Shown: one piece after another, positions 1-39,840 of the stretch
Numbering within the stretch: the stretch's first letter is position 1
Layout: every line of letters starts with the position of its first letter
Assembly (NCBI GenBank): GCA_963727455.1
Contig: CAVSGG010000003.1
Location: 64,001 to 128,000, forward strand
Source: Candidatus Krumholzibacteriota bacterium
GTDB lineage: Bacteria > Krumholzibacteriota > Krumholzibacteriia > JAJRXK01
DNA length: 64,000 bases
Reading direction: 5' to 3'
Program-made: the position numbers and the translations under genes
Notes under the pieces: generated by a model
Seen by the model: the letters and a program-made list of their open reading frames with translations, nothing else
Database searches by the model: none
What the model was told of the DNA's origin: nothing

Positions 1-1
1 G

Positions 2-853
2 CAGTGGAGAGAGGACGAGAGCAACACGAGCGCGGACTTCCGCCGCAACCGGGTGCGCCACGAGCTCGTCCCCCTCCTGAACGAGATTTTTGACGAGGGC
101 GCGCCGGAGCGGCTGGGAAACTTCGCGGAGCACTGCGCCACCCTGGCGGCCTGGCTCGCCGAGCAGGCCGAGGAGGCACGCGCCACCCTGAACCGCGAGC
201 CGGAGCCCCCCCTGGATCCCGCCGCCTGCGAGCTCCTCCACCGGCCTGGATTTTGCGCACTTCAAGAGCCAGTACAATTGGAGATCCTGCGCCACATCGC
301 GCGCGAATTGGAGCCGGCGGGGCCCCAGCACTGGAATCGAGAGAATCTGCTGCGCTTGCGCGAATTCGCGCTCAAAGCGCCCGTGGGAAGCCGCTTTCCC
401 CTGGCCCAGGGGGGCTGGCTCGTGATCGACCGCGATCAGCTGCGATTTCAGCCACCCGGGGCGAGCGCTGAGGCCGATCGCGACTCGATGCGACTTTCCG
501 TGGAGCTTTTGCCCGCCGAAGGCGTTGAGACTACTATGACAGCTAGGAACTGCACCCAGATTGACGCGGACAAGATCCATGGAAACTTGAACTTGCGGTG
601 CTTCCGGCCGGGAGACCGCATGCGAGTGGAAGGAATGCCCGGACGCAAGAAAGTGGCGGAGCTCTACCGCGAACACGGAGTACCCGCCGACCACCGCGAT
701 TCCATGTGGATCGTGGAGGACGAGGAAGGCATCGTCTGGACCGTGGGGGTCGCGACCTCGCAACACTGTCGAATCACGAGCGCAACGCAGAGAGTCTTGC
801 GTTTGAGCTTGCAACCCCAAAAGAAGGAATCCGATCTCGATGACCGGACCTGA
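2..853 (+). CDS. tilS: tRNA(Ile)-lysidine synthetase, 5'-truncated by the window edge
   Basis: Frame is open from position 2 ([20 protein letters not shown], matching the TilS ED.SN...RNR motif). It has a C-terminal TilS_C-like region ([18 protein letters not shown]) and lies upstream of ftsH. Confidence 0.9.
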
Positions 854-27217: not shown

Positions 27218-27443
27218 TCTTCGTGATCGCCGCAGCAGTGGATCCTTGCAGAGCAGCTGGTTTGCCCGAGACGAGCTTCCACGACTTCGGACACGAGTAG
27301 CCTAGCGGCGCAAGCTGGGGGCGTCAACGGGACGCGTCGTGTGCTGCCGAGCCCTCGTGCCGTGGCGAGACGCGCCGTGTTCGAGGCCAGGATGGTCCAG
27401 GACCGGCTTGACACTGCGAATTTCGTTGCGGATGATCAAACCC

Positions 27444-28673
27444 ATGACACATCTCGTGGGGCTCTTGGGCCTCGTCGTTCTCATGGGGCTCGCCTGGCTC
27501 TTCTCCACCAACCGCCGGGCTGTTGATTGGCGGCTGGTCGGCTCCGGCCTCCTCTTGCAGCTTGCCTTTGCCGCGATCGTCCTACTCCTCCCTCCCGGCC
27601 GGGCCTTCTTCGACTTGATTCGCCAGGTCGTCACCCGTTTTCTGGCCTTCACCTACGAGGGCAGCGAATTTGTCTTCGGCGATCTGGCCCGGCCCAATGG
27701 AAGCGTGGGGATGGTCTTCGCCTTTTACGTGCTGCCCTCGATCATCTTCTTCAGTGCCACCATGTCGGTGCTCTACCATCTGGGCATCATGCAGCGGGTG
27801 GTTTCGGTCATGGCGCGCTTCATGACCCGCGTCATGGGGGTGAGCGGCAGCGAGAGCCTCTCGGTGGCGGCCAACGTCTTCATCGGCCAGACCGAAGCCC
27901 CCCTGGTGGTGCGGCCCTACATCGCGCAGATGACCCAGGCGGAATTGATGGTGCTGATGACCGGGGGCTTCGCCACCATCGCCGGCAGCGTCCTGGCCGG
28001 GTACATCTCCTTCGGAATCGACGCGGGCCATCTCCTGGCGGCCAGCGTGATGAGCGCGCCCGCCGCCCTCGTCATCGCGCGCATCATGGTCCCCGAGACC
28101 GAGGAGAGCCTCACCCGGGGCAAGGTTCAGCTCCATCTGCCCAAGACCACCGCGAATTTGGTGGAAGCGGCGGCCGAGGGCTGCTCGCAGGGGATGAAGC
28201 TGGCCCTGAACGTGGCCGCCATGCTCATCGGGTTCATCGCGCTCATCGCGGTCTTCGACGCCATCTTGGGCAAGGGGGCCTCTCTTATCGGACTCAGCTG
28301 GTGGCCGTCCAGCCTGCACGAGCTCTTTGGCTACCTGCTGTGGCCCATCGCGTGGGTGATGGGGGTTCCGGCCCACGACTGCTTCAAGTTCGCCGGACTC
28401 TTGGGCACCAAGATCTCCATCAACGAATTCGTGGCCTACGCCGACCTGGCCAAATACGAGCACACCGCAGCCCTCAGCCCGCGCGCTTCGGTCATCGCCA
28501 CCTACGCACTGTGCGGCTTCGCCAACTTCGGCAGCATCGGCATCCAGCTGGGGGGCATCGGACCTTTGGCCCCCGAACGTCGCGGGGACCTGGCCCGTCT
28601 GGGCCTACGGGCCATGATCGGCGGCGCGCTCGCCTCCTGGATGACCGCCACCATCGCCGGCCTCATGATCTGA
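27444..28673 (+). CDS. nupC: Concentrative nucleoside transporter (NupC/CNT family)
   Basis: FAFYVLPSIIFF, ANVFIGQTEAPL, GGFATIAGSV, NEFVAY and YALCGFANF. The ATG lies 7 nt after a TTGACA-N17-GATGAT element, so the mRNA may be leaderless. Confidence 0.94.
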   Translation: MTHLVGLLGLVVLMGLAWLFSTNRRAVDWRLVGSGLLLQLAFAAIVLLLPPGRAFFDLIRQVVTRFLAFTYEGSEFVFGDLARPNGSVGMVFAFYVLPSIIFFSATMSVLYHLGIMQRVVSVMARFMTRVMGVSGSESLSVAANVFIGQTEAPLVVRPYIAQMTQAELMVLMTGGFATIAGSVLAGYISFGIDAGHLLAASVMSAPAALVIARIMVPETEESLTRGKVQLHLPKTTANLVEAAAEGCSQGMKLALNVAAMLIGFIALIAVFDAILGKGASLIGLSWWPSSLHELFGYLLWPIAWVMGVPAHDCFKFAGLLGTKISINEFVAYADLAKYEHTAALSPRASVIATYALCGFANFGSIGIQLGGIGPLAPERRGDLARLGLRAMIGGALASWMTATIAGLMI

Positions 28674-29189
28674 ACCTTCGCGCGCTGCGCCACCGCGGTC
28701 TCCAGGGGGAGCGCCCCCGGCAGGGAGGGTTCGCATTCTGCCGGGACCCTCCGCCGTGCTCGATCCTTGTACCTTCGAAATAGTTTTCTCAAGCTCTTCT
28801 AAAGGCTTGAGTTAAAGCGCCTGGGGGACGCGCCCTCCGAGGAGGTCTTTGGTTCTACAAAATATTATGTTTGCGCTTTATCTTCTTATTTTTGGCCCTA
28901 CGGAACGCGAACTTGCTGGCACCACACCCCCGCCCCGGGCCAGCGAGAAAGCTCCGACGCAGCGACGCCCCAGACCTGCGCAGAAGAAGGGAGGCGAAGC
29001 GCGCTCGGTAGCGACGATTGGACAGCTTCGGCTGCCCGCTATATATAGGTAGCTCTGCGGCAGCAGTAGGCGGCGCCGGGCGCCGATTCTCCCCCCGTCT
29101 CAGCTCTGCCCGCGGATCTGAGGCCTGGAGCAGCATTGCGCCCCGGCCAAATTGGTCTCCCTACGAAGAATGATGGGGTTTTGAAGTTC

Positions 29190-31844
29190 ATGGCGAAGAA
29201 GACCACCCGTAGCAAGATGCCCAAGACCGACGGCAAGCAGCTCGTCATCGTCGAGAGCCCGTCCAAGGCGCGAACCATCAACAAATATCTGGGAAAGGAC
29301 TTCGTGGTGGTCGCCAGCGTGGGCCACGTACGCGACCTCCCCAGCAAGAACCCCAAGGGAGACAAGTCCCCGGTCCCGGGAATCGATCTGGAGAATCACT
29401 TCGAGCCGCGCTACGAAGTACTCAAGGGCAAGTCCAAGCTGGTGAGCGAGCTGAAGCGCGCCGCCAAGAACGCGCGCGAGGTCTGGTTCGCCACCGACCT
29501 CGATCGCGAGGGCGAGGCCATCGCCTGGCATCTGGCCGAACTCGTGGGGATCACCCCGGAGGAAGCCAAGCGCGTCATCTTCAGCGCCATCACCCGCGAT
29601 GAGATCGATCATGCGTTCAAGGACCCGCGTGCCATCGACATGGATCGCGTCAACGCGCAGCAGGCGCGGCGCATCCTCGATCGCATCGTGGGCTACCAGG
29701 TTTCTCCGCTCTTGTGGAAGAAAGTGGCGCGCGGACTTTCCGCGGGCCGCGTACAGAGCGTCGCCGTGCGCCTGGTGGTGGAGCGCGAACGCGAGATCCG
29801 CGCCTTCGTGCCGGACGAGAGCTGGCAGATCCTGGCCAATTTCCACGGCGATACTGCGGTGGGCGAGAGCTTGAGCACCGATTGGGCGGCCCTGCTCGCA
29901 ACGCGCGACGACAAGGGAAAACCCCCCACGCAGAAGGAGCTCAATGCGTGGCTCGCCAAGAAGGAAGCGGTGCGCGCCGAGTTGGTCAAAGTGGCCGGAG
30001 AGAAATTCGAACTCGAACTGAAGGGCATGATCGACGGCGTGTCCCAGGATGAGAAGTTCAAGGACGCGTCGGCCCAGGACAACACGCCCGCCGTGCTCGA
30101 AGTGGCGCGGCTGGCCGGTTTGCAGTCCATCCAGACTGAGGTCACTCAAGATCCCAAGGGCAAGGGCCCGGCGCGCTATCGGCGCACGGTCCGCGGAGAA
30201 ATCGATCCCGCGGCCAAGTACAGGGTGAGTTCGATCGAATCCAAGCGCACCAGTACACGCCCCGCCGCTCCCTTCATCACCTCCACTTTGCAGCAGGCAG
30301 GATCCTCACGCTTGGGATTCGCTGCGCGGCGCACCATGCAGGCGGCGCAGCAGCTCTACGAGGGAGTCGACATTCCTGGCGAGGGACCGACCGGTTTGAT
30401 CACCTACATGCGAACCGACAGCACCCGCCTGAGTGGCGATGCGCTGGCGATGGCGCGCGAGTTCATCTCAAAGGAATACGGCCACGAGTACTTGCCCGAG
30501 AAGCCCAATTTCTTCTCGTCTTCGAATCGCCAGGCCCAGGACGCGCACGAGGCGATCCGCCCCACCTCACTCGCGCACTCTCCGCAGAAGCTCAAGAAGG
30601 TGCTGCGGCCGGATCAGTACAAGGTGTATTCCCTCATCTGGAGTCGTTTCGTGGCCTGCCAGATGAAGCCCGCCCAGTGGGACTCCACCAGCGTGTTCAT
30701 CGAGGGCGGCATCGACCCCAAACGACCGCTCACCTTCAAGACCCAGGGGCGCACCCTGGCATTCGACGGCTTTTACAGAGTGGCGGGGGTTCCTTTGGCC
30801 AGCGATGAACAGTCGCTTCCTCCGCTGAAGGAGAACGACTCACTCTCGCCCTTCGCCATCGAGCCCAAGCAGCGGTTCTCGGCGCCGCCTGCGCGCTATA
30901 CCGAGGCCAGTCTCATCAAGAAGCTGGAGGCCGAAGGCATCGGACGGCCTTCCACCTACGCCTCCATCATCCAGGTCATTCAGCTGCGCAAGTACGTGGA
31001 GCAAATCGAGCGGCGCTTCTATGCCACCGATCTGGGCGAGATCGTCATCGACAAACTGCGCGAGGCGTTTCCCGGCATCTTTCGGGTGGACTACACCAAG
31101 AAAATGGAAGCCGAGCTCGACAAGATCGAAGAGGAGCACCACGACTGGATCAGCATGTTGGAGAAGTTCTACGAACCCTTCTCGCAAAAGCTGGAGAAGG
31201 CCCTGGAGGAACTGGGGCACGCCAAGGCGGAAACCCAACCCGCGCCCGACGAGTATCGCTGTGGTGCCTGCGGCGCTCCCACCGTCTACCGCTTCGGGAA
31301 AAACGGGCGCTTCCTCTCTTGTTCCACCTATCCCAAGTGTCGCTGGGCCAGTCCCATCGATCGCGACGGAAGGCCCCGGCCGGTGGAGGAGACGAACGTG
31401 GCCTGCCCCAAGTGCGGCGAGCCCATGATCAAACGGGTGGGTCGCTTTGGTCCCTTCCTCGGATGCCGGCGATACAACGACGAGAAGAACCCCTGTGACG
31501 GCATTCTCAATCTGGACAAGAAGACGCACAAGGTGGTGGCACCCTCCCAACCTCCTCTCCAGACCGATCTGCCTTGTCCCAAGTGCGGAAAGCCGCTCAA
31601 TCTGCGCCTCGGCTTGCGCGGACCCTGGTTGGGGTGCTCGAGCTTTCCCAAGTGTCGCGGCCGCATGGCCTGGACCAAGCTCGACGCGGAAGTGAAGGAG
31701 AAGTGGCAGCGCGCTCTGGACGAGCACGTCGCGAAGCACCCCATCCCCATCATCACGACGGTGGACGGGGAGGCGCTCACCGACGAGAGGGGCAAGCCGT
31801 TGCCCGATTCGCCGGTTCCCGGCGAGGAACTCCTCAACGTCTGA
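29190..31844 (+). CDS. topA: DNA topoisomerase I (type IA) with three C-terminal Zn ribbons
   Basis: LVIVESPSKA, ATDLDREGEAIAWH, SAGRVQS, active site ITYMRTDS and GIGRPSTYA, followed by C4 zinc-ribbon repeats. Confidence 0.97.
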   Translation: MAKKTTRSKMPKTDGKQLVIVESPSKARTINKYLGKDFVVVASVGHVRDLPSKNPKGDKSPVPGIDLENHFEPRYEVLKGKSKLVSELKRAAKNAREVWFATDLDREGEAIAWHLAELVGITPEEAKRVIFSAITRDEIDHAFKDPRAIDMDRVNAQQARRILDRIVGYQVSPLLWKKVARGLSAGRVQSVAVRLVVEREREIRAFVPDESWQILANFHGDTAVGESLSTDWAALLATRDDKGKPPTQKELNAWLAKKEAVRAELVKVAGEKFELELKGMIDGVSQDEKFKDASAQDNTPAVLEVARLAGLQSIQTEVTQDPKGKGPARYRRTVRGEIDPAAKYRVSSIESKRTSTRPAAPFITSTLQQAGSSRLGFAARRTMQAAQQLYEGVDIPGEGPTGLITYMRTDSTRLSGDALAMAREFISKEYGHEYLPEKPNFFSSSNRQAQDAHEAIRPTSLAHSPQKLKKVLRPDQYKVYSLIWSRFVACQMKPAQWDSTSVFIEGGIDPKRPLTFKTQGRTLAFDGFYRVAGVPLASDEQSLPPLKENDSLSPFAIEPKQRFSAPPARYTEASLIKKLEAEGIGRPSTYASIIQVIQLRKYVEQIERRFYATDLGEIVIDKLREAFPGIFRVDYTKKMEAELDKIEEEHHDWISMLEKFYEPFSQKLEKALEELGHAKAETQPAPDEYRCGACGAPTVYRFGKNGRFLSCSTYPKCRWASPIDRDGRPRPVEETNVACPKCGEPMIKRVGRFGPFLGCRRYNDEKNPCDGILNLDKKTHKVVAPSQPPLQTDLPCPKCGKPLNLRLGLRGPWLGCSSFPKCRGRMAWTKLDAEVKEKWQRALDEHVAKHPIPIITTVDGEALTDERGKPLPDSPVPGEELLNV

Positions 31845-31924: not shown

Positions 31925-33001
31925 TCAGTTCTTCGTCACGCCCGTTCCTTCGCAGGGATAGTCGGTCGTCGCCGCATTGAAGGCATGCGTGTTGACGTTC
32001 GAGTTCTCGTAACAAAGCGACTGCACACCGTAGACCATGCTGTAGGCATGGTAGCCCAGCATGTTCAGCGCCACCGTCACCTGCGCCGAGGTCTGCCCTG
32101 TCCAGCAATAGACGAGGATCTTCTGGTCGGTGGGCAGGGTGTTCAGGGTATTGTCGGTCTGCAGGCTCGCCTTGGGAGCGTACTGCACCGCGGTGGGCAT
32201 GTGGCCCGCGTTGTATTCGGCCGTGGGGAAGTAGTTCACCACGTACCAAGTTCCGTCGTCGGCCGCGATCGAGTCGTACACGTTGGAAATCCCGCGCGAG
32301 TTCCAGCCGCTGCCGAACTCGTTGTAGGTACCCCTGACGTAGGCATCCGCGCGCGCCTTCAGAACGTCCAGACCGGTGCCCAAGCCGGTACCCAGCGCCG
32401 GATAGCTACCAGGAGCGTTGCAGGCGCAAGGATCGGGAGTCATCCAGGTATTGTAGTCATTGGAGGTCTTTTTCATGTAGTCAGTACCGATGTAATCGGT
32501 GTTCGAGGTCCAGCTGCTCATCCCGAACACCAGGTTCACGGCATCGTAGCCCGTGTCGATTCCCAAGAGATTCAAGATGGCGGTCGCGGTGCTGGCCGTC
32601 TGGCCGGTAAAGCACACGTTGCAAATCACCTTGTCGGTAGGGAAGTCCCCCGCGTTGACATGGTCGATGATCTCCGAGAGCGACCAGTTCACTGCGCCCT
32701 GGATGTGCGCATTGTCGTAGACCGCCGGCGAGCGCCAGTCGACGATGAAGTAATCGTCGGAGGGATCGGCGTTGCCGAAATTGGCGTCGAAGAGCGCCTG
32801 GGCGGAGATGTTGACCCCCAGGCCACGGTTCGGCGTCACGTAGGTGCTCAGATAGGCGTCGGTGTAGGGAGAAACCAGCGAGAAGCCGTCCGCCGCGGGC
32901 GGGGGATTCGTTCCGTTGTCGTCGTCGCTACAACCGACGAAAGCGAAGACGAGGATCATCATACTTGTGAGAAGCAGCTTGCTCCAACGACTGCGATTCA
33001 T
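31925..33001 (-). CDS. Tandem-rhodanese-domain lipoprotein (sulfurtransferase)
   Basis: Lipobox FVGC. Two rhodanese domains: IVDWRS..YDNAHIQGAVN..CFTGQTA and YNAGHMPTAV..VYCWTGQTS. Confidence 0.88.
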   Translation of the reverse strand: MNRSRWSKLLLTSMMILVFAFVGCSDDDNGTNPPPAADGFSLVSPYTDAYLSTYVTPNRGLGVNISAQALFDANFGNADPSDDYFIVDWRSPAVYDNAHIQGAVNWSLSEIIDHVNAGDFPTDKVICNVCFTGQTASTATAILNLLGIDTGYDAVNLVFGMSSWTSNTDYIGTDYMKKTSNDYNTWMTPDPCACNAPGSYPALGTGLGTGLDVLKARADAYVRGTYNEFGSGWNSRGISNVYDSIAADDGTWYVVNYFPTAEYNAGHMPTAVQYAPKASLQTDNTLNTLPTDQKILVYCWTGQTSAQVTVALNMLGYHAYSMVYGVQSLCYENSNVNTHAFNAATTDYPCEGTGVTKN

Positions 33002-33092
33002 GGTCATTCCTTTCCTGGTCTGCAATGAGCGAATCCCTCGCGAAGATCATCCCCGAAAGGGACCCGCTCACTCACGATGGTGATCCTCTCGA

Positions 33093-34451
33093 TCACCAGG
33101 ATGAATTGGGCGCCCCGTCGGGCACCACGAGAGCTTGATTGGCCTGCTGCTCTGCTACCGGCAGAGCGGACAGGTCCGAAGCACGCAGGAAGAAGTCCTT
33201 CGCTCCGAGATGCGAGTTGTGACACGCGTCGAAGCAGCTTGTCCCGCTCACCGCCGGGTCCGGCGTGCGATCGGTACGGCGCCGGATGTTGTGCGGCGTG
33301 GCCAGCTTCCAGGTCGGTTCGCTGCTGAAGTTGGGCAGCGTGCTCATACCCCAAGCGGCATAGGTGTCGTCCACCACCGGCACGTGGCGCAGGACTACGT
33401 ACTTCTCGGAGCGGATATCCGACCTGGGGTTGTAACCGATCTTGAAGGTCTCATAGGAAGAACCCGTGATACCCTCACCCGCGTGGCATCCGTTGCAGCT
33501 CTTGTAGTTCTGGCTGTGGCAGACCTGACACGCGAACTGCGACAGATGCGTGGTGTGGTAGATGTTGTTCCAATTGGCGTCGGTGCCCGGTCCGTGGCAG
33601 TCCGTGCACTTGGCCAGCCCCGGCGCCTCGTAACGAGATTGCGTCGCGCTACCATCGCCGTGCATGTCCGCGCCGTCGTGGCAATCCATGCAACTCATGG
33701 CCAAGGGAACGCGGTGGTAGTCGGCTCCGGCATAGTCATTGTTGCCGTAGTACTCGTCTCCGATTCGCGATCCATGGCATGCCGTGCAGTTCAAGGACAT
33801 GTCCGGAGTGCGGTTCACGCGATGTGCTTTCACGAGTCCGCCGCCCACGGGCTTCGGCGAGGAGATGTGGCAATCGCCACAGCTCACATGACAGCCCCCG
33901 CAGGCCGAGCCAAAGCCCGCCATGTACGCCGCGTTATCGCTGATCTTTTGCCCCGATCGTTTTTCGAAGAGGGCATAGTAGGCAGCTTGCGTGGAGTGGA
34001 TGGCGGTCGTGTAGGTCCCTTTGGCTCCGTGGCAACTCGCCTCCAGGCAGGTATTGTTCGCGCCGTCGCTGGGATCGGCAATGAGACCAGCGTGTGCATC
34101 GTCCTTGGTGTTCTCGCCGCTCTGCCCCCCGTGGCAATAGATGCAGCCGAGGGAACCATGGGTGCTGGCCAAGAAGGCAGCACCGTCCGTACCATCGATC
34201 AGAACTTTCTTCCATCCCTCAACCTGAGGGATCGATCCGCCTCAGCCCTCCCCCGTGTCGGCGGGGAGGGTGTCGGGGAGGGCGGTGGCCATCAGCATGG
34301 CCTGGTTCGTATGGCAACCCTGGCAGGTGGCAACTTGGAGGGCGGGTCCTCCACCCCCGCCATCCCCCGAATCGCTGCTGCCGCAGCCCCAGAGGCCACC
34401 CAGCGCCAGCGATCCTGCGGCAAGCCAGAACAAGAACTTATGTGAGACCAT
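33093..34451 (-). CDS. Multiheme c-type cytochrome lipoprotein, predicted selenoprotein (UGA = Sec70)
   Basis: ATG at 34451 with RBS and lipobox LWGC. The only in-frame stop is TGA at 34244-34242 (GEG*GG), and the frame continues into the 33093..34172 ORF. It has 9 CxxCH motifs plus CX4CH and CX3CH, and a SECIS-like hairpin after the UGA. Confidence 0.85.
34211..34235 (-). promoter_or_regulatory. Putative bacterial SECIS element
   Basis: UGA-GGCGGAUCG-AUCCCUCA-GGU-UGAGGGAU: a perfect 8-bp stem with a G-initiated apical loop 17 nt after the UGA. Confidence 0.8.
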
Positions 34452-34467
34452 TCCTATGGCTCCCTTC

Positions 34468-35136
34468 TCAGCTCTTCGCCTCAGGCACGGATTGGCCGGC
34501 GGAGTCGTTTTCTTCGTTTGCGGCTTTTTCGGGGACTTCCGCCAAAAGCCCGCGCGCGAAAATCGGTACGTTGTTGCAGATGATGTCGAGAGTCTCGTAG
34601 CTGACGTCTTCGAGCCTGTTCCAGAACTCGGCATTGACCGCGCAGCCGATTACGAGTCCGACGTAACAGCGCGCGGTAATGCCGGGATCGACTTTGCGGA
34701 GTTCCCCGCTCTCGATCCGTTTCTTGAATTCCTTCGCGAGAAAGTTCACGTAGGGCATGCGGAACTCGCGCAATAACTTCGCAGCGGCTTCGTCGTCGGT
34801 GACCGAAGTCATCAGAAGCAAGCGAAGCAGCTGGGGGTCCTGCTGCGCGGTGGAGAGCAAGTGCAGCGAGGCGGCACGCAAGAGGTCTTCGACCGATTCC
34901 AAGGAGCCGAGGGTTTCCAGATAGCTGCTGATGGCCAGACCGCGCGAACGAGATTCGACGGCCTTTTCGAAGAGGTCGAGCTTGCTGGGAAAGTGTCGGT
35001 AGATGGCGGCGGCGGTGATGCCCACGTCTTCCGCCAGCTGCCGCATCGAGGTGCCCGCATACCCGTAGCGGGAGAAGTGCCGCAGGGCGACTTCCAGGAT
35101 CTGGTCCCGCCGGGACAGCTTGGACGACGCAGGCAT
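34468..35136 (-). CDS. TetR/AcrR family transcriptional regulator
   Basis: RRDQILEVALRHFSRYGYAGTSMRQLAEDVGITAAAIYRHFPSK. It ends 16 bp upstream of the cytochrome start. Confidence 0.92.
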   Translation of the reverse strand: MPASSKLSRRDQILEVALRHFSRYGYAGTSMRQLAEDVGITAAAIYRHFPSKLDLFEKAVESRSRGLAISSYLETLGSLESVEDLLRAASLHLLSTAQQDPQLLRLLLMTSVTDDEAAAKLLREFRMPYVNFLAKEFKKRIESGELRKVDPGITARCYVGLVIGCAVNAEFWNRLEDVSYETLDIICNNVPIFARGLLAEVPEKAANEENDSAGQSVPEAKS

Positions 35137-36386: not shown

Positions 36387-37730
36387 TTGAGAATCCTGCG
36401 ACTCTCGCTTGGCTCGAATCTGCTCGGCCTCTTCGTCCTCGTGGCGACGGCCCTGACGCCGCTGCAGAGCGCGGCCCTGCAGGATGCGCAGGGGAAAAAG
36501 ACCACCGACGAGCTGACGCCGGTTCGGCAGCTGGCCAAGCAAGCCGAGGGCGAACCGTACTGGGCACCGCTGCTGCGCCTGCGGGAGGCCGAGGCCCAGT
36601 ACCGGGATACTCCGCAGTGGAGCGCCTACTTGCAGCTGCGCGCCTACCTCGAGTGTAAGGTGGGCGACCATCATGCAGCGTTGGCGTCCTGGGATGCGGC
36701 TTTCACCCCCCCGGATTCCGTGGGGACCCTTCCCGCCGGCATCGTGGCGCGCGATGCGCTCGCGACTTTGAGCGCGGTGGCCGATACCGCCCGGGTGATC
36801 ATGATCAACGAGCGTCATCACGCGGCCTCCGATCGCTTGCTGACCCTCGCTCTGCTTCCCATCCTGCGCGCCAAGGGCTTCCGCTACCTCGCAGCGGAGG
36901 CCTTCAATCCCCGCGACGCCGAGCTCAACGTGCGGTCCTATCCGGTGGCCGCGACGGGGACCTACCTGCAGGATCCCGTCTTTGCCGCGATCGTACGCGA
37001 GGCGCGGCGTCTGGGTTACACCCTGGTGCCGTACGAGAGCCTGCAGGGGGAGGAGGCGGGGGACGATAGCATGACCGCCCAACAGCGGCGGGACTTCACG
37101 CAAGCGAAGAATCTGGCCCGGGCGACGGTTCAGCAGGATCACGAGGCGAAAGTCCTCGTCCATGCCGGATACTCGCACGTGCTCGAGCGCGCGAGCGAGC
37201 GTTTCACCCCCATGGCCCTGTATTTCCATCAGCTTACCGGCATCGATCCGGTCACGGTCGACCAAACGCGCCTCAGCGAACGAAGCAGCCGCGAGTACGA
37301 GGCTCCCGCCTATCGCGCCTGCCTGAAGGCGGGACTCTTGAAGGACCGCGCGCTAATCTTGTTTCAGGTCAACGGAAAGCCCTACTCGCCCGCGGCCTTC
37401 GCCGTCGACTACCAGGTCTTCACTCCGCGCACACGCTACGAGGATGGGCGACCGGTCTGGATGCGCTGCGGTGGGCTGCGCCAGGCGATACGAGTCGCGG
37501 TTCCCGAGGCGGAGGACGAGTGGTGTATGGTGGAAGCCCGAGTGCCGGACGAGCCGGACGAGGCAATTCCACTCGACCGCTGCGAGCTCGAGGGAACGCA
37601 GAAGGCGATGCTCTTTTTGCCGCCCGGCAAGAAGTTCATCCTCTGGGTGCGCGATCAGGATGGAGACGTGCTGCGCAAGACCCAGATCATTAATCCCCTT
37701 CGCCAGGAAAGAGGCGAGGGAAGCAATTAG
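36387..37730 (+). CDS. Secreted hypothetical protein (possible ChaN/EreA-like fold)
   Basis: Signal peptide, VIMINERHH...GFRYLAAEAF and VLVHAGYSH. The fold assignment is tentative. Confidence 0.6.
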   Translation: MRILRLSLGSNLLGLFVLVATALTPLQSAALQDAQGKKTTDELTPVRQLAKQAEGEPYWAPLLRLREAEAQYRDTPQWSAYLQLRAYLECKVGDHHAALASWDAAFTPPDSVGTLPAGIVARDALATLSAVADTARVIMINERHHAASDRLLTLALLPILRAKGFRYLAAEAFNPRDAELNVRSYPVAATGTYLQDPVFAAIVREARRLGYTLVPYESLQGEEAGDDSMTAQQRRDFTQAKNLARATVQQDHEAKVLVHAGYSHVLERASERFTPMALYFHQLTGIDPVTVDQTRLSERSSREYEAPAYRACLKAGLLKDRALILFQVNGKPYSPAAFAVDYQVFTPRTRYEDGRPVWMRCGGLRQAIRVAVPEAEDEWCMVEARVPDEPDEAIPLDRCELEGTQKAMLFLPPGKKFILWVRDQDGDVLRKTQIINPLRQERGEGSN

Positions 37731-37809
37731 GGCGCGGGGAGAACTCTGATGCCGTCAACTTGGGCTCTCGTTCCTTGGATTGCAATGGTGCTCGATGAAA
37801 CTTGACTCG

Positions 37810-39840
37810 ATGACAGAGCGGGCGAACGCTGACGACAGGAAGCGCGCGAAGGCTGCCGGCTGGCTGGCTGCGGTGTGGATTGGAGCGGTTGCGGGCTGGG
37901 TCGACGCGAGCGCTGGATTTCTCCACCCGGTGTCGACGCGTTTGCTGCTGTTCTCTCCTCTCCTCTACGGTCTTTTCGCGCTCGTCGTTTACCTTCTCGC
38001 CCGCGTCGTACTGCGATTGCTTTCCGCACTGATGGGCAATCGGGTGAGTTATTTGCGCCACATCGAGAGCCTCGCCTTGGGCGCGACCGCCGGTGCTCTG
38101 ATCCTGTTCTTCGGGGTATACTTCGTAACCACTTCCACGGTGCCCTTCTTCGCCTCACTCCGTGGCCTGCTCCTGGGATTCGTGGGGGCTACGATCCTGA
38201 GCTGGGTGGCCCTCGTGTCGGTTTCGCTCCTGGCCCTGCGCCGATATCCTACCCCGCCTCAGGATCGAGACACGCGCGCTCTCGAGCACCGCGCCGCGCC
38301 GTCCCGAGCTTTCTTTCGGCTCTGGCTGCCCTTTACTCCCCTGCTGGCCATCGCGTTCGCCTACGGAATCCTGGCTGGAATCTACTTCGCTCGCGACGGC
38401 CACCTCGCTCGCGGGCAGAGCCCGCCGCGGGGATTCGTTCTGGTGAGTCTCGACGCAGCTCGCGGTGATCACTTGACCGCCCTCGGTTACCCACGGCCGA
38501 CCACGCCGCAGATCGACAAGTTGATTTCCGGGGGTACGGCATTCCGGCGCGCCTACGTGCAGATGCCCGCCTCGGCGCCTGGCCACTCCAGCATGTTGAC
38601 CGGTCTGCCGCCGCTGTCGCACGGCGTGCTCGTAAACACGGGGGTACTCGACAATCGAATTCTGACCCTGGCCGAACGCTTACGCGGCGAAGGATTTCGT
38701 ACGGCCGCCTTCATCAACAACTACTATCTGGAGAGTCGATTCGGCTTCGATCAGGGTTTCGAGACCTTCATCGATCAGTACCGTGCTTCCCAGTTGGCCA
38801 CCTGGGACCCGCGCTTCTTGCTACGCGGGACGGCGCTCTTCCATGCCATCATCCGTGCGACTCGCCGCCCGGGCGCCCGAAACGATGATACGATCAATCT
38901 CACCCTAGACTGGCTGCGTAACCGGCCAGCCGGCGACTTCTTCGTGTTTCTGCACATCATGGATCCGCACTCCCCCTATGCGCCGCCGGAGGATCTGCGC
39001 CGGAAGTTTCAGTCGCCGGAGGACGACAGGAGAACACATCCCGTTACCGGTGAGAAGCTCGAACCGGTTCGGGACAACGCGGCCCTACGAGCGCGCATCG
39101 GCGCACTAAACCCCCATGAGATCAGCGGCATGCGCAATCTCTACGATGGCGATCTTGCGCTGGCCGATCGCAAAGTCGGCAGGCTTGTCGCTGAATTGCG
39201 GCGCCTCGGCCTATTCGACTCGACGCTTTTGATGGTCACGGCCGACCACGGCGAGGTTCTCTACGAAAAGGAACACGACTTCGACCACGGTTTCATCTGG
39301 AACGGCGATCTCCACGTTCCCCTGGTGATGAGTTACCCGGGACACGTGCCGGCTGGAAGAATCGTGGACGAAGAGGTGCCCGGCGCTGCGATCCCAGCCA
39401 CCGCCTGTGCGCTGCTCGATGTTCCCTACGAGGAACAGACCAAAGCTGGCTTCTACGGCCCGCTCTTACCCACCGGCCCATCCGAGATTCTGGCAGAGAG
39501 TTCTCCCCCTTCCGCTGAGAACGAGGAGAAAATCGTCTGCGCCCTCGCCGGCCTGAAGGACGGGAGCCGGGTCACCGCTGCCATGGGGCCGCGCTACAAG
39601 CTGATTGTCTGGCCGGACGGGCGGAGCATGCTCTACGACCTTCAGCACGATCCCTTCGAACTGACGGATCTCTGGCCGCCACAGGATTTCGGCCAGATCG
39701 AGGCCGCACGGCGCCTGCGCGAGCACCTGTCCACGTGGCTCGAGACCTCGCAAGCGCAGGCGATCGGGGAATCTCGTCAGGAGGACGACATCGACCGCGA
39801 GACGCGCCAGCGTCTGCGCTCGATCGGGTATGTTCACTGA
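37810..39840 (+). CDS. Membrane-anchored sulfatase-like hydrolase/transferase
   Basis: N-terminal TM helices, LVSLDAARGDH, SAPGHSSMLTG, MDPHSPY, TADHGE and RLRSIGYV. Start is uncertain (37780-37810). Confidence 0.85.
   Translation: MTERANADDRKRAKAAGWLAAVWIGAVAGWVDASAGFLHPVSTRLLLFSPLLYGLFALVVYLLARVVLRLLSALMGNRVSYLRHIESLALGATAGALILFFGVYFVTTSTVPFFASLRGLLLGFVGATILSWVALVSVSLLALRRYPTPPQDRDTRALEHRAAPSRAFFRLWLPFTPLLAIAFAYGILAGIYFARDGHLARGQSPPRGFVLVSLDAARGDHLTALGYPRPTTPQIDKLISGGTAFRRAYVQMPASAPGHSSMLTGLPPLSHGVLVNTGVLDNRILTLAERLRGEGFRTAAFINNYYLESRFGFDQGFETFIDQYRASQLATWDPRFLLRGTALFHAIIRATRRPGARNDDTINLTLDWLRNRPAGDFFVFLHIMDPHSPYAPPEDLRRKFQSPEDDRRTHPVTGEKLEPVRDNAALRARIGALNPHEISGMRNLYDGDLALADRKVGRLVAELRRLGLFDSTLLMVTADHGEVLYEKEHDFDHGFIWNGDLHVPLVMSYPGHVPAGRIVDEEVPGAAIPATACALLDVPYEEQTKAGFYGPLLPTGPSEILAESSPPSAENEEKIVCALAGLKDGSRVTAAMGPRYKLIVWPDGRSMLYDLQHDPFELTDLWPPQDFGQIEAARRLREHLSTWLETSQAQAIGESRQEDDIDRETRQRLRSIGYVH

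Follow-up and report, generated by a model that had tools for sequence, protein, structure and literature searches.

Does the TGA at positions 34244-34242 of the stretch of DNA analysed here end a gene, or is it read as selenocysteine (Sec) within a single multiheme cytochrome c? The stretch, hereafter the window, comprises 64,000 nucleotides of contig CAVSGG010000003.1 from a Candidatus Krumholzibacteriota bacterium (positions 64,001 to 128,000), and its source assembly is a metagenome-assembled genome (MAG) of 3.46 Mb in 18 contigs that is 88.85% complete. The listing of open reading frames (ORFs) splits the locus into two pieces on the minus strand, 34242..34634 and 33093..34172, which the initial annotation, made from the letters alone, took to be parts of one hidden selenoprotein of 452 residues that share a frame and are separated only by the TGA. 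The sequence and the ORF listing agree with that description: the TGA is the sole interruption of a 452-codon frame, and the read-through product from the ATG at 34451 has the N-terminus MVSHKFLFWLAAGSLALGGLWGC with U70 lying within TGEGUGGSIPQVEGW. Comparison with homologues supports the two pieces being one gene, which would encode a lipoprotein cytochrome c of ~48 kDa with eleven covalently bound hemes and one Sec (U70). As an overall explanation we favour, and consider reasonably likely, an exported eleven-heme Sec cytochrome that takes part with a rhodanese in sulfur or selenium redox chemistry. The elements of the gene, all on the minus strand, are as follows.

33093..34451, minus strand: whole gene of the predicted undecaheme lipoprotein cytochrome c selenoprotein (translation; 452 codons plus the stop TGA at 33095-33093)
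34460..34466, minus strand: Shine-Dalgarno-like AAGGGAG, 8 nt before the ATG, with a putative role as such (sequence)
34451-34449, minus strand: start codon ATG (sequence)
34383..34451, minus strand: predicted signal peptide (residues 1-22) and lipobox Cys23 (L-W-G-C; ...LALGGLWG-C23) (sequence; Cys column in homologues)
34242..34244, minus strand: in-frame UGA, predicted Sec70, in the loop G-E-G-U-G-G-S-I-P (sequence, homologue codons, independent contigs)
34214..34232, minus strand: hairpin resembling a selenocysteine insertion sequence (SECIS), 8-bp stem AUCCCUCA/UGAGGGAU, loop GGU, 9 nt past the UGA (sequence; covariation)

The in-frame UGA among homologues

The TGA is not an assembly error, because it recurs in independent contigs of two further public runs (X1, X2): the X1 contig covers 33000-34271 with 0 differences and the X2 contig covers 34129-34602 with one difference, at 34374. 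One of these two runs may be the window's source sample. Near-identical contigs to the locus come from wetland and salt-marsh metagenomes, and the public run search lists no RNA runs that hold it.

Two sets of homologous loci were compared. Searching 61 genomes (that of the window and 60 relatives) in six frames recovered the gene in 20, and a scan of one genome per species gave at least 562 related loci among species-representative genomes, the best 80 of which form the wider set. Record titles place the family in Krumholzibacteriota, Eisenbacteria, Calditrichota, KSB1, Gemmatimonadota, Chloroflexota, Planctomycetota, Ignavibacteriota and others. The two sets overlap in part because both use species representatives, and the share of Sec forms in them is biased upward because both were found with a Sec-type query. 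TGA aligns to U70 in 19 of the 20 related loci, which represent several families of the class at identities down to ~40%, and the surrounding motif is strongly conserved (G-[ED]-G-U-G-G-x-[VI]-P-x-[VL]-E-x-W); the exception (L037) has TGG (Trp), with both neighbouring residues changed too. Among the wider 80 loci, which come from many phyla and in which the site codon was located by a motif pattern, TGA stands at the site in 68, Cys codons in two (TGT in L066, TGC in L069) and other codons in two (GGC for Gly in L093, and CGC in L110, a doubtful motif match), while the pattern located no site in 8. Homologues with TGA or Cys aligned at this position, which the initial annotation had named as support, are thus what the comparison returned, the Cys codons being rare. 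Together with the hairpin described below, the comparison shows the UGA at 34244-34242 to be a conserved sense codon, as judged from sequence, with natural alternatives that include Cys.

Protein databases give a complementary picture. A search of 1.84 billion representative proteins with the family profile returned 1007 at E <= 1e-3. Most public entries cover ~83% of the query, that is, the piece after the UGA, and miss the signal peptide, the first heme and Sec; 30 of the best 150 profile matches start between profile positions 77 and 81, immediately past the UGA, which is the expected footprint of gene callers halting at TGA. Public protein sets hold the C-terminal piece, just as had been predicted for standard pipelines. 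NCBI calls the members "hypothetical protein", many JGI entries carry the name "thiosulfate/3-mercaptopyruvate sulfurtransferase" and none is called a selenoprotein; the sulfurtransferase name stands on truncated cytochrome pieces (P0155, P0162, P0179 and others) and is probably an annotation carry-over from the rhodanese fusions discussed below. Full-length database members necessarily lack TGA. Cys occupies the site in full-length homologues P0007, P0011, P0024, P0043, P0045, P0055, P0073, P0083 and P0145, and ten of the 65 aligned rows that extend to the N-terminus are Cys forms.

In a tree of these 65 rows, built with the Sec loop left out, the Cys and other forms are nested within clades of Sec forms, which implies that Sec has been lost repeatedly; the tree labels need at least 14 changes, six of which are forced by well-supported branches for the Sec label. 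The gene tree also departs from taxonomic labels, with Gemmatimonadota and Eisenbacteria rows scattered and Thermodesulfobacteriota beside Gemmatimonadota, which suggests either that the cassette is often transferred or that the labels of the MAGs are unreliable.

The SECIS-like hairpin and the selenocysteine machinery

Directly 3' of the UGA, at 34232-34214, lies the hairpin AUCCCUCA-GGU-UGAGGGAU, with a 9-nt spacer and with its loop 17 nt from the UGA, as first described from the window alone. The spacing between UGA and hairpin is fixed among homologues, and the hairpin alignment (A6; UGA -6 to +54, 74 loci) is therefore free of gaps. All cells (100%) pair in the window's own family, in which two pairs show compensatory change on both sides, and 93.8% pair in a second group of relatives, in which one pair is split 7 CG / 5 AU. 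Across the whole alignment two registers occur one codon apart, each of them in several phyla. In register 1, which includes the window, stem columns 19-26 pair with 30-37 around a GGU/GUU loop 17 nt from the UGA; in register 2, shifted by one codon, a GGA/GGC loop lies 20 nt from the UGA. The sequences were assigned to the register in which they pair better, that is, by the counted feature, and with this assignment 94.8% of cells pair in register 1 (46 of the 74 sequences) versus 38-52% with slid partners, and 93.5% in register 2 (28 of the 74) versus 26-55%. The compensatory changes within each group are independent of the assignment: pair 21-35 of register 1 is CG in 10, GC in 30, AU in 4 and UA in 2 with zero mismatch, pair 22-34 is CG in 27, GC in 10 and UG in 6 with 3 mismatches, and pair 26-36 of register 2 is CG in 15 and AU in 10. 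The conserved and covarying hairpin that the initial annotation had named as support is therefore present in both registers.

The stem overlaps the codons for V-P-x-L/V-E-x-W, and several of its changes combine an amino-acid replacement on one arm with a matching synonymous or replacement change on the other. In one locus (L091) three further pairs are altered on both sides and the peptide is rewritten to SVSGVPAW with a 7-bp stem kept. The hairpin of the Trp form L037 has one extra mismatch and that of the Cys form L069 has two mismatches. Which residue precedes the conserved Trp (G, A, V, P, R or K) depends on the wobble position of the Val codon in the opposite arm; the RNA structure thus visibly shapes the peptide.

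The genome encodes selA (455 bits), selB (355 bits) and selD (352 bits), all above their cut-offs. The selD gene, at G000:C3:155157-156089 (L009) and ~27 kb past the end of the window, itself contains one in-frame TGA and is probably a second selenoprotein gene of the organism. TGA also serves as the stop of the cytochrome gene, exactly where the alignments of its homologues end, and of the adjoining TetR gene (34470-34468, 16 nt ahead of the cytochrome start codon), and hence is not generally a sense codon here. By analogy with established bacterial Sec insertion, SelB and Sec-tRNA(Sec) would almost certainly bind the hairpin, with its 9-nt spacer, 8-bp stem and G-first loop, and insert Sec at the UGA.

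Several observations weigh against this reading and have to be set beside it. The initial annotation named selABCD as a check on the genome, and its fourth member is missing: tRNA-Sec (selC) was not found in the 88.85%-complete MAG with Rfam, Aragorn or cmscan. The best match to the Rfam tRNA-Sec model in the genome scores 43.4 bits, below the cut-off of 47, and the matches concerned are Leu, Ser and Tyr tRNAs; Aragorn at default settings reports no tRNA-Sec among 39 tRNAs, none of five low-threshold Aragorn candidates has a tRNA-Sec match in cmscan, and the regions around selA, selB and selD hold no tRNA-Sec. All five of five relatives, three of them of the same genus, have tRNA-Sec at 72-74 bits, and the 700-bp selC region of a relative whose copy of the cytochrome is 96% identical is entirely absent from the assembly; the missing selC looks like an assembly gap rather than a gene loss. 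The fold energy of the hairpin as a single sequence is unremarkable (z = -1.39, with 17 of 200 shuffles folding equally well), and the hairpin is judged to exceed chance because of the comparison with homologues and not because of the single sequence. A minority of homologues has Trp (L037, P0040, P0014), His (P0056), Tyr (P0063) or Gly (L093) at the site, and Ala, Pro and Leu also occur there, so that the residue must be dispensable for some members; the initial annotation had regarded non-Cys codons as contrary evidence, and those that occur (Trp in a few, Gly, His and Tyr in one each) are a minority nested among Sec forms. Finally, Arg229 and Lys317 are commoner in Sec and Cys forms in the raw tables, where the co-occurrence of Arg229, Lys317 and Arg423 with Sec or Cys is suggestive, but the association is not significant with six phylogenetically independent pairs and for that reason is not used as evidence.

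The predicted cytochrome and its neighbours

The initial annotation counted CQGCH and eight more CxxCH motifs and allowed for nine to eleven hemes. The upper figure fits the homologues: beside nine CxxCH motifs there are one CX4CH (C135..C140-H141) and one CX3CH (C406..C410-H411), both of which align with conserved heme motifs of the homologues, and all eleven motifs are invariant or nearly so in two protein alignments, a first set of 18 rows and a broad set of 91 rows.

Hemes 1-11, minus strand (sequence): C43xxCH, C103xxCH, C135x4CH, C184xxCH, C191xxCH, C222xxCH, C254xxCH, C282xxCH, C308xxCH, C319xxCH, C406x3CH

Outside the motifs, H98, H120, H152, H210, H246, H264, H299, H302 and H387 are conserved in 88-91 of the 91 rows and H356 in 78 of 91. 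Eleven motifs against nine or ten conserved non-motif His leave at least one heme without a conserved distal His, as in catalytic multiheme enzymes. No free Cys is conserved apart from that of the lipobox, and 56 of the 65 rows that extend to the N-terminus have Cys in the lipobox column. The signal peptide would direct export of the pre-protein, Cys23 would be lipidated and the hemes would be attached outside the cytoplasm.

An AlphaFold2 model from the 91-row alignment reaches a predicted local distance difference test score (pLDDT) of 89.6 and a predicted template modelling score of 0.84, with 74-86 in the Sec loop; a model from the 18-row alignment (pLDDT 38.7) was discarded. Pfam c7/c3 models score just below their cut-offs and the lone NCBIfam match is to ExtM (16.7 bits), with no match at E <= 1 to ExtKL (NF040886), GSU2204 (NF041027) or the octaheme tetrathionate reductase (OTR) family (TIGR04315). 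Against PDB sequences, phmmer returns 0 matches at E <= 10, and against PDB structures Foldseek finds nothing at E <= 0.001. The best Foldseek match is OTR (1sp3; prob 0.96, E 7.8e-3, TM-score 0.21), which is partial at 162 columns, and the next ones, with chance-level E > 1, are hydroxylamine oxidoreductase (HAO), OcwA and nitrite reductases. Profiles reach further into PDB sequences: the 18-row profile matches the sulfite reductase MccA weakly (E 2.8e-4), and over hemes 6-9 the broader profile matches GSU1996, "cytochrome cf", OTR and OcwA (E 1e-9 to 1e-12). On the strength of these family, fold and profile results we regard the protein as architecturally new among the superfamily of multiheme cytochromes; the closest relatives that can be recognised are enzymes.

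In the window the cytochrome gene is preceded by a TetR gene and followed by the gene of a tandem-rhodanese lipoprotein and then by a convergent topA, which makes the cassette of this organism TetR-cytochrome-rhodanese. Its two neighbours and the genes outside the cassette are as follows.

34468..35136, minus strand: TetR-family regulator gene, immediately upstream of the cytochrome (Pfam TetR_N, E 7.4e-16)
31925..33007, minus strand: two-rhodanese-domain lipoprotein gene, downstream of the cytochrome (Pfam Rhodanese, E 1.8e-18, two stretches)
29136-31844, plus strand: DNA topoisomerase I (topA), outside the cassette
27339-28673, plus strand: nucleoside transporter, outside the cassette
36387-37730, plus strand: weak ChaN/heme-binding-like match, outside the cassette
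37780-39840, plus strand: sulfatase, outside the cassette

The last four (topoisomerase I, nucleoside transporter, ChaN-like and sulfatase genes) have no evident link to the cytochrome. Of the 20 related loci, 18 have a homologous TetR gene beside that of the cytochrome; in the wider 80 the TetR cluster occurs in only 10. Adjacency of the rhodanese gene is conserved among the related loci, and among the wider 80 a rhodanese gene occurs in 70, with 64 of 72 rhodanese ORFs starting 0-214 nt after the cytochrome ORF. Both active-site loops of the window's rhodanese read C-[FWY]-T-G-Q-T; in 45 rhodanese homologues neither catalytic Cys varies, and that of the lipobox is nearly invariant. Natural fusions of cytochrome and rhodanese also exist, with two C-terminal rhodanese domains (P0063, 715 aa, and P0057, 652 aa). 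The first of these has Tyr at the Sec position, and the second is probably a truncated Sec form because it starts just after the UGA position.

Other neighbours differ from lineage to lineage. A conserved 398-aa protein with a signal peptide, unmatched in Pfam and NCBIfam, is encoded immediately downstream of the cytochrome in 25 of the 80 loci (e.g., L081:5353-6546) and might be an outer-membrane protein, recalling the porin-like ExtI beside ExtKL; a 295-aa multiheme cytochrome occurs in 24 loci and a sigma-54 PAS regulator in 19. A periplasmic decaheme of DmsE/GSU2203 type (TIGR03508, 193 bits) is found nearby in 22 of the 80, and a 631-aa protein weakly like a GSU2204/MtrB-type barrel in 8, which hints at a trans-outer-membrane conduit in some lineages. 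In loci labelled Krumholzibacteriia and Latescibacterota a decaheme of the DmsE/GSU2203 family precedes the cassette; examples of these decaheme and barrel-like neighbours are at L107:506-1420, L075:1196-3088 and similar loci.

Sulfur, selenium and the role of the selenocysteine

What might such a protein do? The association with rhodanese, the fusions, the likeness to enzymes and the precedent of MccSep (ExtKL) in Geobacter sulfurreducens lead us to infer a sulfur or selenium redox enzyme, namely an extracytoplasmic reductase of sulfur or selenium compounds. By analogy, the cytochrome is likely to work as redox partner to the tandem-rhodanese lipoprotein co-transcribed with it and to act on sulfane-sulfur or chalcogen compounds (polysulfide or S0, thiosulfate or tetrathionate, selenite).

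MccSep, the model for this proposal, is a Sec multiheme polysulfide/selenite reductase of demonstrated activity, published in August 2026 as the first characterised heme-c selenoprotein among the listed families; it has five hemes, Sec325 in a C-terminal Ig-like domain (peptide ...PDGUPTP...) and a strictly conserved heme-ligating Cys239 (PMC13510729). Like the window's protein it is an extracytoplasmic multiheme cytochrome c selenoprotein whose annotation is split at the UGA, with a SECIS-like hairpin within 30 nt, and in both families Sec forms are the majority, with the Cys forms derived. Rhodanese genes occur in the ext cluster as well, where ExtH is a lipoprotein of this kind. Beyond this the two differ, as the initial annotation had supposed when it proposed a distinct architecture: there is no detectable sequence relation, a genome search with NF040886 misses the locus, eleven heme motifs stand against five, Sec lies in the N-terminal GEGUGG loop and not near the C-terminus, and no counterpart of Cys239 exists among conserved free Cys. 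No MccSep chain is among the PDB search matches (fold library to April 2026), so that the two are set apart here by sequence and description and not by fold. OTR shares with the window's protein the character of a catalytic multiheme cytochrome acting on sulfur oxyanions and is its sole probable fold match, with a profile match of hemes 6-9 to OTR residues 134-236; it differs in its low TM-score, in family model and in number of hemes (8 vs 11), and the Sec-bearing N-terminal loop lies outside the matched part. In Wolinella a periplasmic rhodanese-type carrier, Sud, hands polysulfide sulfur to the respiratory reductase Psr, a molybdoenzyme, whereas here the reductase would be a heme-selenoprotein.

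In the mechanism we propose, the selenolate of U70 would attack the cysteine persulfide of the rhodanese, or the free substrate; the resulting Se-S (or Se-Se) adduct would be reduced by electrons of the heme chain at the heme without a conserved distal His, and sulfide (or selenide or Se0) would be released. Unlike MccSep the family has no conserved partner Cys, and either the rhodanese cysteines might fill this role or Sec might act at or on the odd heme. Taken as a whole, this chemistry (selenolate attack and reduction of the adduct by the heme chain, with direction and substrate left open) has in our estimate a little less than an even chance of being right. In a more specific form, which we consider rather doubtful, U70 would be the distal axial ligand of the His-less heme, and rhodanese-delivered sulfane sulfur would be turned over through a heme-bound Se-S adduct. 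We leave this possibility open because eleven hemes face nine or ten His, because His or Tyr stands at the site in some homologues and because there is no partner Cys; if true, it would be the first natural selenolate-ligated (His/Sec) heme, the selenium counterpart of the His/Cys hemes in TsdA, SoxAX and MccSep.

Three points limit the assignment of a reductase, in addition to those already raised about the codon: its substrate and direction derive from gene neighbourhood and analogy only, the cassette encodes no quinol dehydrogenase or electron donor, and the window's genome holds no DmsE-type decaheme above the cut-off.

The alternative that survives best keeps the selenoprotein but makes U70 a sixth (distal) ligand that tunes one heme for pure electron transfer, for example in the part of an outer-membrane conduit that is exposed at the surface and faces minerals or electrodes. 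The shortage of conserved distal His, the presence at the Sec site of His and Tyr, both possible heme ligands, the lipoprotein nature of the protein, the decaheme and barrel-like neighbours of some loci and the matches of some homologues to MtrC/MtrF domain models would all suit it, and the protein resembles MtrCAB/DmsEF systems in being a lipoprotein multiheme cytochrome. Yet the partners of those systems are absent from the window and, above cut-off, from its genome, similarity to the MtrC family is weak (E 1e-5 to 1e-6), Sec gives way to residues that do not ligate heme too (Trp, Ala, Gly, Pro, Leu), and the near-universal rhodanese partner and the fusions, which are foreign to Mtr systems, favour sulfur or selenium chemistry over mineral reduction. 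We also know of no natural Sec-ligated heme. On balance we hold pure electron transfer to be unlikely.

A second alternative would run the sulfur chemistry in the oxidative direction, with the selenoprotein and its rhodanese acting as a thiosulfate, sulfide or polysulfide dehydrogenase that passes electrons to the respiratory chain, like the His/Cys heme of TsdA and SoxAX. The rhodanese neighbours and fusions fit this, the contigs from wetland and salt-marsh metagenomes are in keeping with it, and the authors of the MccSep study suggest in their Discussion that its mechanism may be the reverse of that of TsdA/SoxAX (PMC13510729). TsdA and SoxAX have in common with our proposal a chalcogen chemistry at a heme whose sixth-ligand position holds no His, and would be possible analogues if U70 or Cys ligates or approaches the odd heme. 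They are, however, di-heme proteins with no specific similarity to the family (nothing to TsdA beyond heme motifs, and with the 18-row profile SoxA reaches only E 0.29), eleven hemes would be a large number in a simple dehydrogenase, and the nearest fold and profile matches, OTR and MccA, are reductases; we consider oxidation distinctly improbable. Last, that the UGA is a real stop (of one of two genes or a pseudogene), or Trp or Gly through near-cognate read-through or an altered code, draws on the Trp (TGG) and Gly homologues, the Gly-rich loop and the missing selC, but is barely credible and was rejected in view of the standard Sec signature (a TGA conserved at one codon across phyla with the frame intact on both sides, Cys homologues and a covarying hairpin), of a downstream piece that lacks a signal peptide although heme attachment needs export, of the two genes that end in TGA, and of selA, selB and selD here and selC in the relatives.

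The reductive Sec cytochrome that we favour would belong to a new family. In the accessible part of the selenoprotein family table of a 2026 review, the only cytochromes are ExtKL, the GSU2204 family and OTR-type octahemes, the OTR family TIGR04315 being listed there as a GenBank-annotated selenoprotein family (PMC13188914). No description of the window's cytochrome family was found in the full-text literature, although supplementary tables might list it under another name. As far as sequence comparison can tell, it appears to be a new family of Sec-bearing multiheme cytochromes with a rhodanese association, unrelated in sequence to the ExtKL, GSU2204 and OTR families.

Few selenoprotein families contain heme c. 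Recognition of this one would correct many annotations and would make selenium a requirement for bacteria of poorly known phyla in sediments and wetlands. It would also provide a second instance, independent of the first, in which Sec is combined with a heme chain and a rhodanese, and thereby allow a direct test of convergent S-S cleavage by selenium plus heme.

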